This document shows positions 13,264 through 25,987 of a stretch of DNA of 64,000 nt, piece after piece. The position numbers and the translations under genes are program-made. This DNA is from an uncultured virus (IMG/VR IMGVR_UViG_3300022841_000001) (Duplodnaviria > Heunggongvirae > Uroviricota > Caudoviricetes > Crassvirales): the IMG/VR virus record IMGVR_UViG_3300022841_000001, one strand, 5' to 3'. Every line of letters begins with the position of its first letter. Within the stretch, counting starts at the first letter, position 1. Under the pieces are notes generated by a model. It saw only the letters and a program-made list of their open reading frames with translations, did not search any database and was not told the origin of the DNA.

Positions 13264-13288
13264 AAAAAGAAAGGGGCGTAAGCCCCTT
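13264..13288 (-). terminator. Intrinsic terminator after the SSB gene
   Basis: AAGGGGC-N4-GCCCCTT hairpin followed by TCTTTTT on the minus strand. Confidence 0.75.
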
Positions 13289-17307: not shown

Positions 17308-17348
17308 TGGATAGGGAGGAATCGAACCTCCCAAGCACCTTGCTACCC
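17308..17348 (-). ncRNA. Mini tRNA-like element 1 (acceptor stem plus T-arm, no anticodon arm)
   Basis: GGGTAG-CAAGGTGCTTG-GGAGG-TTCGATT-CCTCC-CTATCC-A. Confidence 0.8.
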
Positions 17349-19242: not shown

Positions 19243-19283
19243 TGCTGGAGGAGGAATCGAACCTCTTTACATCCAATCCAGCA
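19243..19283 (-). ncRNA. Mini tRNA-like element 2
   Basis: (T)GCTGGA-TTGGATGTAA-AGAGG-TTCGATT-CCTCC-TCCAGC-A. Confidence 0.8.
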
Positions 19284-19924: not shown

Positions 19925-20257
19925 TTAATATGCTGATGTTGCTCTTTTTTGAATGTTTTCAAATGTATCGTCCTCGTCTCTGTAATCCCTAGTTAAATTG
20001 TGGTAATACTTCATCAACTCTTTACCTATAGAGTCTAGCTCACCGAATCTGTCCACATACTGTAGTTGTAGCATTACATTAGATTCTTGAGACCTAATGG
20101 TATCATTCACCTGAATAGCTCCCATCATTCCACCACCTAAGTAGTTTTGATATGCCGACATTTTGTGACCCTTGAATCCTATTGATGTTAAACTAATTTC
20201 AACACCTCCACCTCTAGTTGAGGTTTCTTTTCTTACTGTCATTTTCTTAAAGTTCAT
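19925..20257 (-). CDS. Hypothetical early protein
   Basis: Start preceded by AACTACA; immediately downstream of hammerhead 1. Confidence 0.75.
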   Translation of the reverse strand: MNFKKMTVRKETSTRGGGVEISLTSIGFKGHKMSAYQNYLGGGMMGAIQVNDTIRSQESNVMLQLQYVDRFGELDSIGKELMKYYHNLTRDYRDEDDTFENIQKRATSAY

Positions 20258-20273
20258 TGTAGTTATAATTTAA

Positions 20274-20326
20274 GTTAATAACCACCATTGCTGGTGGTTT
20301 TCATCCTTCAGGAATCATCAGTTAAC
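20274..20326 (-). ncRNA. Type I hammerhead ribozyme 1
   Basis: GUUAA-CUGAUGA-UUCC UGAA GGAU-GAAA-ACCACCA GCAA UGGUGGU-UA-UUAAC; predicted cut after UUA, between 20279 and 20278. Confidence 0.9.
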
Positions 20327-20444
20327 CACTTACTGTTATTGTACCATTGGCGTAATGACTACATATTAATCCAGTTGGTAGTACTACCACCTTTACTTGT
20401 TTTGATTTAAAAATCGACTTTACTTTTCTTGCTATTAGTTTCAT
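20322..20444 (-). CDS. 40-aa basic protein (not in ORF track)
   Basis: MKLIARKVKSIFKSKQVKVVVLPTGLICSHYANGTITVSG; its stop codon lies in ribozyme stem I. Confidence 0.55.
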   Translation of the reverse strand: MKLIARKVKSIFKSKQVKVVVLPTGLICSHYANGTITVSG

Positions 20445-20445
20445 A

Positions 20446-21126
20446 TTATTCTAGTGTTTCTAATCTTTCGTTAACTTCTTTTAATGTGTATGTTTTTTCG
20501 CTATCTACGTAGTCTCTAAACTCTTCGATATAGCCTTCACTTATGTCTTGCCTCAGTTCGTAGTCGTCTTTATACTCAGACAGATACTCGTGAATTATTC
20601 CTTCAGAATGGTCGCCATATTTGAACAACTTAGCATCCGTGTATCCTCCTCTAGCATCTGCACCATTGTGTATCTGAATAAGAATATACTCCTCATCATT
20701 TATGGTTAGGTTAGAACCCTGAAGTATCTGAGACAAATCACTGTCACCGTTATAAGTGTTCCAGACTCTCTGCTCAATAACATCATTCTCAAAGGAGTTA
20801 ATGTGGTCAAATGCATTCCTGCTCACTCCGTAAGATTCACAGTCAGAATTCCAATCATCAGACTCTTCCTGAATCTCGTTAAACTCATCGCATAAATCAT
20901 CCAGCTGGAGGTTATTGGTTAGGTAATGAAACACAGATACTGTCCTCATTATATCACCTCTTTCCCAGTCGAATTCATAAACCTCCATTTCTTCATTGTT
21001 AAAATCCTCAATGGTCTTCTTTTGGTTTCTTTGCCAGCCTCTGCCTTCAGAAAATCCACTGTCACCCATCGCTTTACCAGTATTTTCGGTAAGCATTCCG
21101 TAAACTAATTTTTGTACTTGATTCAT
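20446..21126 (-). CDS. Hypothetical early protein (acidic)
   Basis: MLTENTG...DSG...RGWQRNQ, NTYNGDSDLSQILQ and QIHNGADARGGYTD segments. Confidence 0.8.
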   Translation of the reverse strand: MNQVQKLVYGMLTENTGKAMGDSGFSEGRGWQRNQKKTIEDFNNEEMEVYEFDWERGDIMRTVSVFHYLTNNLQLDDLCDEFNEIQEESDDWNSDCESYGVSRNAFDHINSFENDVIEQRVWNTYNGDSDLSQILQGSNLTINDEEYILIQIHNGADARGGYTDAKLFKYGDHSEGIIHEYLSEYKDDYELRQDISEGYIEEFRDYVDSEKTYTLKEVNERLETLE

Positions 21127-21147: not shown

Positions 21148-21200
21148 AGTTAATAGCCATTCGAAAATGGCTTTCATCCTTCAGGAATCGTCAGTTAACT
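21148..21200 (-). ncRNA. Type I hammerhead ribozyme 2
   Basis: AGUUAA-CUGACGA-UUCC UGAA GGAU-GAAA-GCCAUU UUCG AAUGGC-UA-UUAACU; predicted cut after CUA, between 21154 and 21153. Confidence 0.9.
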
Positions 21201-21405
21201 ATATTTTAAAGGTTAATACCTCGTTTATGTCATCAATTTCATTCTGAGTGAACAATATGAAATCAGAACCTATAGCCTGCTGGATGCAGTTTAGGTAAGC
21301 TCTTTTTAATTCATTTTCTGTAGGGTAATACTCATTCAGAACCTCATCTTCCTTCCATCTTTCAAACATCTTAGTGTTTGCATCTAATAATTCTTTAAAA
21401 GTCAT
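21199..21405 (-). CDS. Hypothetical early protein
   Basis: ATG at 21405; stop overlaps hammerhead 2 stem I. Confidence 0.65.
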   Translation of the reverse strand: MTFKELLDANTKMFERWKEDEVLNEYYPTENELKRAYLNCIQQAIGSDFILFTQNEIDDINEVLTFKI

Positions 21406-22458: not shown

Positions 22459-22498
22459 TAAGAGTGCAGGAATCGAACCTGCATTAACCATTACTCTT
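22459..22498 (-). ncRNA. Mini tRNA-like element 3
   Basis: AAGAGT-AATGGTTAAT-GCAGG-TTCGATT-CCTGC-ACTCTT-A. Confidence 0.85.
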
Positions 22499-23090: not shown

Positions 23091-23520
23091 TTCTGTTCTC
23101 GCTATTCGGGGAGTCTTTATACTTTACCCAAGCAAAATTCATACATTACTTCAAAGCCCATTTAATCAAATCCGCTACTAGATGATTAAGATTCATTAAC
23201 CCCATCTACAGATGGTTAAACACTTGGTTATCGTGAAGGAGACCATTAGAAAGGCATTACCGTGACTGGCTTTAATCCTAATGGCTGACAGTGTTTTATG
23301 CTTTGATATCACTGTACTATATGGATTGACTTACTAAAGACGCTTGGTCTACACTACTTCGCTTGATAGATATGGATAGAGATACAATCCCGCATTTAAG
23401 CAGTTGGCTGATTGTGAGCAGGTTAAGAAGATATAGTTAAACCCTTACTTGAAGTAAGGTGATGTAACTGCCTGATTCTCAGTAGTTTAAGTCAATATGT
23501 CAATGAACTGGCGCCTAAGC
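23091..23520 (-). ncRNA. Long structured non-coding leader of the early transcript
   Basis: No credible ORF; nested complementary segments ATTGACTTA/TAAGTCAAT, GCAGTT/AACTGC, CCTTACT/AGTAAGG, AAACACT/AGTGTTT and CCATTAG/CTAATGG. Confidence 0.5.
23493..23508 (-). promoter_or_regulatory. boxA-like antitermination motif
   Basis: GTTCATTGACATATTG about 17 nt downstream of the putative early promoter; resembles rrn boxA. Confidence 0.55.
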
Positions 23521-24400: not shown

Positions 24401-25987
24401 ATGAGTAATTACATTCCAAAGAACCTTGATTTTGACAGTGCTGGAAGGGACAAATTAATTCAGGGTATTACAAAGATTTCCAAGGCTGTAAAAAGCACGC
24501 TTGGGCCGAGAGGAAAAACTGTATTAATTGAGTCCACGGATCATCTTGGTGGGATTGTTATTACTAAGGATGGTGTTACTGTGGCCAACTCTATTTTTTT
24601 GAATGACCCTATTGAAAATTTAGCTGTTCAGATGCTGAAGGATGCTGCTCGCAAGACGGCTAATACTGCAGGTGATGGAACGACTACTGCTATTGTTTTG
24701 ACTGAGGCTATTGTTTTGGCTGGTCAGGAATTTTTAGATTCTGGGAGTAATGTTTCGGAGGTTGTTAAGTTCATAAATGATTATAGTGAGTTTGTGGTTG
24801 ATGTTTTGACTGAGAATTCAAAAGCAATTAGTGACTCTATGTTACATGACGTTGCTACTATTTCATCAAACAATGACCATGAGCTGGGTGGTATCATTTC
24901 TGATGCTTACAAGAAAGTTGGAAAGAATGGTATTGTAACTATTGAGCGATCTCAAAACCATGAGACATATGCAACGGTAACTGAGGGTATAAAAATAGAC
25001 AGGGGTTACACTTCTAATTTATTTATTACCAACCAGAAAAACGATGAATGTGTTCTGGAGGATGTTCATATTTTAGTGTGTGACCAGGAGATAAGTAACC
25101 TACTACAATTGGAGCCTTTATTAAAACCATTGATGGCGAAAAACAAGAAGCTTTTGATAATCGGGCCTTGCTCGGTAAATGTTGTACAGACTTTGGCTTT
25201 AAATGTTGTTCGTCAAGGATTCAAGATGTGTAATATAATGCCACCTCAGTTTGGTTACAAGCAGCATGAATTAATGCAAGACATTGCTATGTCTGTTGGC
25301 GCCAAGTATTTCTCTGAAAAGACCGGTGATGATTTGAGTCACATATCTATTGATGACTTAGGGCATGCTGACAAGATCATTTGTGGAAAAAGTCAAACGG
25401 TTGTTGTGAAAGGAAAAGAGGTTACACCTGAAATATCTACAAGGATTGAAGAGTTGAAGGAGCAGCAAAGAAATACGACTATCACTGCTGACCGTGAATT
25501 TATAAACGAGCGTATCGCAAGTCTATCTGGATCAATTGGATCTATATTTGTTGGGGCTAATTCTGACATTGAGCAGAAAGAAAAGTACGACAGAGTCGAG
25601 GATGCTGTTTGTGCGGTAAGATCTGCATTGGAAGAAGGAATTGTAAAAGGTGGAGGAGTTGCTCTTATGGAGTCATCGATTAAACTTGATGGAATTCCAG
25701 TCCCAGAAAACCAAGACCAGATGGTCGCATTGAATATTTTAAAGAATGCTTGCTTAGAGCCTATTGCTCAGATAATTAAAAACGCAGGTAAGGATTTTGT
25801 TGAGGTTTACTCTACTGCTAACGGAAAAGGTTATGATGTAAAGGCAGAGGTTTACGGAGATATGTTTGAGATGGGAATTATTGATCCCTTGAAGGTAACA
25901 AAAAATGCATTTAAAAATGCGGTGAGTGTTGCAACGACTATCCTAACCACAAACGCGATTATTACACACGCGCGCGCGAGAGATTAA
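24401..25987 (+). CDS. groEL: Phage-encoded chaperonin GroEL (Cpn60)
   Basis: STLGPRG, ITKDGVTVA, AGDGTTTA, DRGY, EEGIVxGGG and GIIDPLKVT motifs. Confidence 0.97.
   Translation: MSNYIPKNLDFDSAGRDKLIQGITKISKAVKSTLGPRGKTVLIESTDHLGGIVITKDGVTVANSIFLNDPIENLAVQMLKDAARKTANTAGDGTTTAIVLTEAIVLAGQEFLDSGSNVSEVVKFINDYSEFVVDVLTENSKAISDSMLHDVATISSNNDHELGGIISDAYKKVGKNGIVTIERSQNHETYATVTEGIKIDRGYTSNLFITNQKNDECVLEDVHILVCDQEISNLLQLEPLLKPLMAKNKKLLIIGPCSVNVVQTLALNVVRQGFKMCNIMPPQFGYKQHELMQDIAMSVGAKYFSEKTGDDLSHISIDDLGHADKIICGKSQTVVVKGKEVTPEISTRIEELKEQQRNTTITADREFINERIASLSGSIGSIFVGANSDIEQKEKYDRVEDAVCAVRSALEEGIVKGGGVALMESSIKLDGIPVPENQDQMVALNILKNACLEPIAQIIKNAGKDFVEVYSTANGKGYDVKAEVYGDMFEMGIIDPLKVTKNAFKNAVSVATTILTTNAIITHARARD

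Follow-up and report, generated by a model that had tools for sequence, protein, structure and literature searches.

Two predicted type I hammerhead ribozymes with a U·U pair at the base of stem II in the early operon of an uncultured Crassvirales phage, and their possible role in RNA processing

The Early Operon and Its Two Hammerheads

We have studied a pair of hammerhead motifs in an uncultured virus of the Crassvirales. The stretch of DNA analyzed, hereafter the window, is 64,000 nucleotides long, and the genome record of the phage is complete (65,450 bases, with direct terminal repeats). Of the 87 phage records that its terminase matched, 86 are phages of Flavobacterium, Cellulophaga, Tenacibaculum or Maribacter, and the host is likely to belong to the Flavobacteria. 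The hammerheads sit in a minus-strand run of small genes of unknown function that leads to the genes for Sak, exonuclease, primase, and helicase. The features of this operon that concern us are as follows, in window coordinates.

22460..22498, minus strand: T-loop minihelix (mimic of the top half of tRNA), candidate processing signal
21199..21405, minus strand: 68 aa ORF; ends in a UAG that overlaps stem I of hammerhead 2
21148..21200, minus strand: hammerhead 2; shares stems I and II, the U·U pair, and A17 with hammerhead 1 but differs in stem III
20446..21126, minus strand: 226 aa ORF, phrog_11344, function not known; between the two hammerheads
20322..20444, minus strand: 40 aa ORF; its UAA stop forms three bases of stem I of hammerhead 1
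20273..20327, minus strand: hammerhead 1, type I, from direct reading, a descriptor search, and alignment of close relatives
20278..20279, minus strand: predicted cleavage site between A17 (20279) and U1.1 (20278), from position in the consensus
20272..20272, minus strand: U1.7, predicted single tertiary partner of the last loop II base A20307, from covariation in the family and a contact known in other hammerheads
20258..20278, minus strand: 21 nt leader of the predicted 3′ product; A-rich, no Shine-Dalgarno sequence
19925..20257, minus strand: 110 aa ORF without an assigned family; in the related locus L674, homologues lie after the orthologous hammerhead
19243..19283, minus strand: T-loop minihelix, second copy, same operon
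17309..17348, minus strand: T-loop minihelix, third copy, same operon

C3 of hammerhead 2 is at 21194, i.e., 873 nt upstream of hammerhead 1, and its predicted cleavage at 21154/21153 would leave a 27 nt leader to the ATG at 21126. The UAA that ends the 40-codon ORF occupies 20324-20322, within stem I of hammerhead 1, as an earlier note on this DNA had claimed. This ORF is kept, with the same stop, in L661, a relative that is ~77% identical, with dN/dS of 0.32 (Fisher p 0.034), and it is probably a real gene. The position of the hammerhead is retained in both L661 and L674. Six homologues of the 226 aa gene were found without a flanking hammerhead, and thus this gene does not need one. The 110 aa protein has no PHROGs family, its Atlas matches fell below 0.9, and no relatives were confirmed in viral contigs; Pfam gave no family for the six proteins tried. 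The 21 nt leader that precedes its gene carries A at positions −3, −6, −12, and −13 which, together with the lack of a Shine-Dalgarno sequence, matches initiation determinants described for Flavobacterium johnsoniae (PMC6847099).

No promoter was identified at the start of the operon in scans that included sigma-70, for which the matches were at chance level. The Bacteroidetes −7 promoter motif, TAnnTTTG, has no minus-strand occurrence between 19968 and 24400, so the hammerhead spacers are not obvious promoters. As regards a virion RNA polymerase, two parts of the giant protein have no solved relatives by sequence. A non-coding block at 23330-23515 (minus strand), which lies upstream of the early operon and begins GTTCATTGACAT, aligns in L650, L651, L657, L661, and L664 and is a candidate early promoter, origin or structured RNA. 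The phage encodes a GroEL chaperonin (24401-25987, plus strand) divergent from the early operon, and a bidirectional terminator-like hairpin (13271-13288) lies between the recombination genes (Sak and exonuclease) and the primase gene.

The three T-loop minihelices each comprise a 5 bp T arm with a UUCGAUU loop, an acceptor-like stem of 6-7 bp, and a linker of 10-11 nt, with no D or anticodon arm. They lie between early genes and show compensatory changes in relatives; all three were missed by ARAGORN and by Rfam at the gathering threshold. We take them to resemble substrates of RNase P or Z, making them candidate substrates of these enzymes. Close to hammerheads there are 16 minihelices on the same strand and none on the opposite strand (107 related loci, 355 kb), compared with two in the control (235 loci, 619 kb). 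This distribution suggests that the operons are punctuated by processing signals.

Structure of Hammerhead 1

Read directly on the minus strand, the core of hammerhead 1 runs from C3 at 20321 as CUGAUGA through A9 at 20315, with GAAA at 20302-20299. All the core elements of the hammerhead class (C3 U4 G5 A6 N7 G8 A9, G12 A13 A14 A15.1, and U16.1 H17) are present, and the topology is that of type I, with stem I open and stems II and III closed by loops. Stem II is formed by three base pairs, UCC/GGA, with a UGAA loop at 20310-20307. At its base U10.1 (20314) is opposed to U11.1 (20303), confirming the earlier report of a U·U in place of the usual G-C at this position. Stem III comprises 8 bp including A15.1-U16.1 and is capped by GCAA. 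The cleavage triplet is UUA, with A17 at 20279, and the first base of the predicted 3′ product is 20278, 21 nt from the ATG at 20257. The identity of the motif, its stems, its cleavage site, and the length of its leader had all been given correctly in the earlier note. To these we can add a sixth pair in stem I, G20327·U20273 (A-U in the orthologue L661), and U1.7 (20272), which lies outside the six-pair helix and is unpaired by it.

The three stems thus have 6, 3, and 8 bp. Among 11 close relatives, 6 of the 15 pairs have changed on both sides, with compensatory changes in stems II and III, and RNAalifold recovers the hammerhead fold. The types of pair found across 150 relatives agree with the stems, pairing having been part of the filter by which these were chosen. 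The two window hammerheads are far beyond chance. A type I descriptor has exactly two matches in the window, with 15 and 16 paired positions, while 60 dinucleotide shuffles of the window gave a single match with at least 12 paired positions and none with at least 13. A relaxed-core scan of the whole 65,450-base genome in type I and type III layouts found only the same two.

Nearest-neighbor folding places the hammerhead fold of hammerhead 1 at 0.3 kcal/mol above the minimum. The core-proximal pair of stem I has a predicted probability of 0.10, compared with a median of 0.20 in 50 U·U relatives and 0.66 in 97 G-C relatives, and the predicted folding of natural sequences is weaker in the U·U forms than in the G-C forms. 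The weakness of the predicted fold indicates that folding depends on tertiary contacts. Judged from its sequence, hammerhead 1 is very likely to cleave itself.

Relatives and Their Gene Context

Relatives were obtained by pattern scans of viral, genome, and metagenome contigs, followed by a filter for the three stems. The strict filter reduced 650 records to 132 distinct motifs, or 151 with metagenome loci. The window's own loci (L032 and L033) were left out, as were L652 and L653 (100% identical to the window) from the set of 151; the two copies of the window were counted. Most of the scan patterns demanded UAA/UUA beside the core, so the conservation of stem I at that point is not independent evidence, and the scans were enriched for U·U. 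A first, very specific viral pattern gave no match; loose U·U patterns and a genome pattern returned mostly chance matches, together providing 13 new motifs that passed the structure filter. Stem I has 6 bp in 87 of the first 97 motifs.

Nearly all the relatives share the same layout, comprising a stop codon, the hammerhead, a leader, and an ATG. An upstream ORF ends within −16 to +14 of C3 in 143 of 161 cases (71 of 79 where there is homologue support). Of 32 close relatives, 27 have an upstream stop that overlaps stem I, and in the wider family the UAA of stem I is itself the stop in 45 of 161. Stop triplets are present in all three frames in both window hammerheads and in 98 of 151 relatives, such that any ORF entering such a ribozyme ends there. 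The distance from the cleavage site to the ATG is 18-34 nt in 109 of 149 cases and shorter than 18 nt in two, compared with 249 of 380 ordinary gene junctions of the same loci that are shorter than 18 nt (median gap 8 nt). This floor of 18 nt may simply be the sum of a normal initiation region and the 7 nt that belong to stem I. A Shine-Dalgarno-like word is found in 44 of 120 leaders and A at −3 in 104 of them, and thus the leaders resemble the initiation regions of varied hosts. Two or more motifs occur in 38 of 108 motif-bearing loci, some of which overlap.

The searches also revealed further hammerheads. Two of type I (L049:704 and L126:304) combine C17 with C10.1·A11.1 in the basal position of stem II, and related type I hammerheads with a shorter stem II occur in bacterial genome contigs (L420:2004, from Legionella parisiensis, and L496:304). 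The cultured Agrobacterium phage OLIVR1 (L677:2500-2550) contains an unannotated intergenic type I hammerhead with a 6 bp stem I, a loop II ending in U, and A1.7. In the Pseudomonas phages PaP3 (L675:25-85) and phiPA01_302 (L676:1095-1150), a type III U·U/A17 hammerhead precedes the first early gene. Many records of Pseudomonas phages contain the 23-base match to the core, and such phages account for 72 of the 95 records matched by BLAST with the window motif. Lastly, a unit of gene plus hammerhead in L666 and L655 is bounded by a repeated leader of ~24 nt that starts at the 3′ strand of stem I; L657 has one leader and lacks the unit (L666:1380-1425 and L657:2060-2108, in the orientation of the hammerhead).

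Covariation of the Last Loop II Base with Position 1.7

The last base of loop II is complementary to position 1.7 in 125 of 132 relatives, of which 96 are U:A, 28 are A:U, and one is G:C. On permutation, the mean was 80.5 and the maximum 96 in 10,000. The rule was obeyed by 27 of 27 held-out motifs, i.e., those that were new after it was noticed, and the hammerhead of OLIVR1, which BLAST revealed later, is of the U:A form. Both orientations are found on seven different stem I sequences, and within single loci in six cases.

The covariation does not extend further. Position 1.8 is paired in 79 of 132, where 79.4 would be expected, and 1.9 in 51, where 64 would be. Since only 1.7 covaries, a multi-base loop II pseudoknot was rejected; the pseudoknotted class (the Perreault pseudoknot and RAGATH-1) has at least four pairs between loop II and the flank, which the present motifs lack.

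In hammerhead 1, U20272 and A20307 would provide the U1.7 and last loop II A that constitute the minimum for an extended (fast) hammerhead. The A:U1.7 form corresponds to the minimal contact already known, which has been called a Hoogsteen-face or reverse Hoogsteen pair (PMC11875169, PMC6155905), and the swapped U:A1.7 form was not found in the literature searched. A pair that can be reversed between A:U and U:A would not be predicted by a fixed reverse-Hoogsteen U·A.

Coupling of the U·U Pair with A17

The U·U pair is present together with an intact core and compensatory stems in 50 of 151 relatives. In scans that left H17 free, A17 accompanied 19 of 21 U·U motifs but 10 of 58 G-C motifs (Fisher 3e-9, the sequences not being independent). 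At one orthologous site having the same flanks and stem III, L655 is U·U/A17, whereas L666 and L004 are G-C/C17; L659 and L665 differ in the same manner. These switches could reflect gene conversion between paralogues. A tree-based independent-pairs test of both this and the loop II coupling had just two pairs on supported branches, using a 45-column alignment. The U·U/A17 coupling, which was not found in the accessible portions of the literature searched, could be explained by misfolding of the weaker stem II; loss of the metal site at G10.1 is the other possible explanation.

Is the U·U pair compatible with activity? Natural U10.1-U11.1 hammerheads were reported by Perreault 2011 (PMC3088659), and PaP3 is listed among the active core variants in Fig. 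S6 of that paper. The PaP3 genome (NC_004466.2, a BLAST match to the window motif) contains U-UCC-UAAA-GGA-U with A17 in a type III layout, and we infer from this sequence and the garbled text of the figure that its U·U motif is the variant tested. As its stem II is almost the same as that of hammerhead 1, the U·U pair is unlikely to inactivate the latter. As a monomer, a U·U type I motif of the axolotl was 22% cleaved after 1 h (PMC7229834). The concern of the earlier note that the U·U might abolish cleavage is therefore largely answered by the 2011 report and PaP3, although the axolotl value leaves room for a lower activity. We conclude that U·U is compatible with activity, perhaps reduced, and that cleavage of the U·U/A17 form probably proceeds more slowly or less completely than that of the G-C/C17 form.

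The U·U pair also affects detection. An Rfam scan for a type I hammerhead, suggested in the earlier note as a check, failed to detect either window copy at the gathering score or at E up to 10. The reason is technical, since the same library detects G-C relatives in seven related loci (35.9 bits for L004, against a gathering score of 34); in L664, Rfam lists two G-C copies and not the two U·U copies. This subtype being missed, counts of phage ribozymes are too low.

Proposed Function in the Processing of Early RNA

We consider it fairly probable, from the sequence and its context, that hammerhead 1, one of two in the early operon, cleaves itself at 20279/20278 to process a long early transcript into separately translated mRNAs. 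The operon would be transcribed as a single minus-strand RNA, and the motif would fold during its transcription, its stems I and II being kept together by the one predicted contact between U1.7 and the last base of loop II. The upstream piece would then end in the stem III hairpin with a 2′,3′-cyclic phosphate, and the downstream piece would start with a 5′-OH and an unstructured 21 nt leader of Flavobacterium type. Cleavage at both hammerheads would release an 875 nt mRNA for the 226 aa and 40 aa genes, with a new mRNA starting at the 110 aa gene. We propose that each block could thereby have its own stability and rate of initiation.

Hammerheads are known in phage DNA, as the earlier note stated. 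Clusters flanking phage genes were described in 2011; each of the tandem hammerheads flanking prophage genes cleaved in vitro, and one set did so in vivo (PMC3088659). The hypothesis that such clusters process phage transcripts also dates from 2011 and remains unproven; the function of such hammerheads has been called undefined (PMC6765202), and their role in phages is still regarded as open (PMC6765202, PMC6155905). The available text of a paper on the LUZ24 transcriptome (PMC10914365) does not use the word ribozyme, and its passages on processing do not bear on phage hammerheads. Both this arrangement and the U·U pair have been known since 2011, and the present locus is an uncultured example.

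The overlap between stop codon and stem I invites another reading, that of the earlier note, in which a ribosome stopping at the UAA unfolds the ribozyme, so that cleavage depends on upstream translation. The 40 aa ORF is conserved in L661, where this UAA is again its stop, while in L650, where the 40 aa gene is absent, it is the 226 aa homologue that ends at this UAA. The frequent overlap in close relatives and the weakness of stem I in the U·U forms would also fit. However, the position of the stop varies within single gene families (−7 or −12; −7 or −21) and across the wider family, and UAA was demanded by most of the search patterns, so its conservation is not independent. With stops in all three frames of the ribozyme, the overlap follows from tight packing, and a hammerhead that is fast would in many cases have cleaved by the time the first ribosome reached it. 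We therefore regard such gating as unlikely.

We are also doubtful that cleavage is a means of shutting off expression, whereby exposure of the ends speeds decay and limits early expression. There is a precedent in glmS, where cleavage is followed by degradation by RNase (PMC6765202), and the motifs are located in an early operon. Yet in all the 3′ products the initiation region is of full length, and the 5′ product terminates with a stable hairpin; these features suit products that are used.

The repeats might instead be mainly points of recombination for the gain and loss of a gene plus its hammerhead, with cleavage secondary. Differences of a whole ORF plus hammerhead are seen on comparing L670 with L667 and L668, L666 with L657, and L664 with L659. 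Nevertheless, early regions shuffle at any junction, and the strictly conserved core, compensatory stems, and tertiary covariation are constraints at the level of RNA, making this quite improbable.

It is more improbable still that the 875 nt piece, through ligation of its matching stem I ends, gives an RNA circle that may be a mobile intermediate. The released ends could re-pair, given that stem I is the same in both copies, and the exchange point between L667 and L670 maps to a short block around the cleavage site. However, neighboring copies often differ in stem I sequence (as in L011 and L044), and the available text of the 2011 study (PMC3088659) records that spliced or circular products were sought and none found. 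Moreover, stem III has stayed with its upstream neighbor in 8 of 12 pairs and with its downstream neighbor in 5 of 9, the pairs not being independent. The exchange points thus fall to either side of stem III, so that exchange does not follow the cleavage site and RNA-mediated mobility is not supported; nor is a mobile unit that corresponds exactly to the cleaved RNA. Finally, an inactive relic crippled by U10.1·U11.1 is hardly credible, for while the motif departs from the most conserved pair of stem II, has no Rfam match, and is predicted to fold weakly, the U·U relatives (from scans enriched for U·U) retain intact cores and compensatory stems, and there is the precedent of PaP3.

Processing of the early transcript remains the function that we prefer, although the homologues of the 226 aa gene that lack a flanking hammerhead, the weak predicted fold of hammerhead 1, and the simpler account of the 18 nt floor speak against it. 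A broader scheme, which we offer tentatively as a possibility, would combine a minimal type I hammerhead having a reversible pair between loop II and 1.7 with a U·U core that needs A17 and is tuned to be slower, cutting being set by ribosomes terminating in stem I; with the mimics of the top half of tRNA, this would constitute an RNA-encoded punctuation of early operons.

What this analysis adds is the two coupling rules, the blind spot in Rfam, and test systems in cultured phages. The family and its patterns may already lie within the Dataset S1 alignments of Perreault 2011 (PMC3088659); our motif searches gave no match in the supplements of that paper that they covered, to which those alignments did not belong. 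Both couplings lend themselves to direct tests in vitro, and they concern how the active site and the tertiary contact tolerate change. Close motifs are present in cultured phages, of type I with U:A1.7 in OLIVR1 and with U·U/A17 in PaP3 and other members of Bruynoghevirus, which makes it possible to test the processing hypothesis in vivo.

Comparison with Known Systems

The clusters described by Perreault 2011 (PMC3088659) resemble the window pair in being intergenic, tandem, and flanking small non-conserved genes, and they too were proposed to process long phage transcripts. The present family differs in having no pseudoknot between loop II and the 3′ tail beyond a single pair, a fixed stem I of 6 bp, and a position abutting the upstream stop. 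The PaP3 hammerhead shares with the window U10.1·U11.1, stem II of UCC/GGA, a U-N-A-A loop, A17, and a 6 bp stem I followed by U1.7; unlike the window copies, it has type III topology, lies before the first gene, and has its cleavage site upstream of the core.

Comparison with the type I (Schistosoma-type) hammerheads of RF00163 shows the same topology and core, a 6 bp stem I, and U1.7 opposite a loop II ending in A. However, the window copies do not score, the internal loop of stem I and the distal helix are not conserved in the present family, and most relatives have the swapped U(loop):A1.7. Given the U·U, which leaves 10.1-11.1 unpaired, and the lack of an Rfam match, we do not file the window hammerhead under RF00163. 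The axolotl HHR_Amex2 (Cervera and de la Pena 2020, PMC7229834) is also of type I with U·U at the base of helix II, and it self-cleaves; it belongs to an animal retrozyme, has a helix III of 2 bp, and performs better as a dimer, whereas stem III of the window motif has 8 bp. Like PaP3 and HHR_Amex2, the window element carries U·U in an otherwise intact core, and it is to be filed with these natural U·U hammerheads, with type I topology.

In phage T7, RNase III cuts the early transcript between early genes, leaving mRNAs that end in hairpins; this is a protein enzyme of the host and gives different end chemistry, and the likeness to the window hammerheads is an analogy of function only. In that sense, the two hammerheads would work in the manner of RNase III on T7 early RNA, dispensing with the host enzyme.
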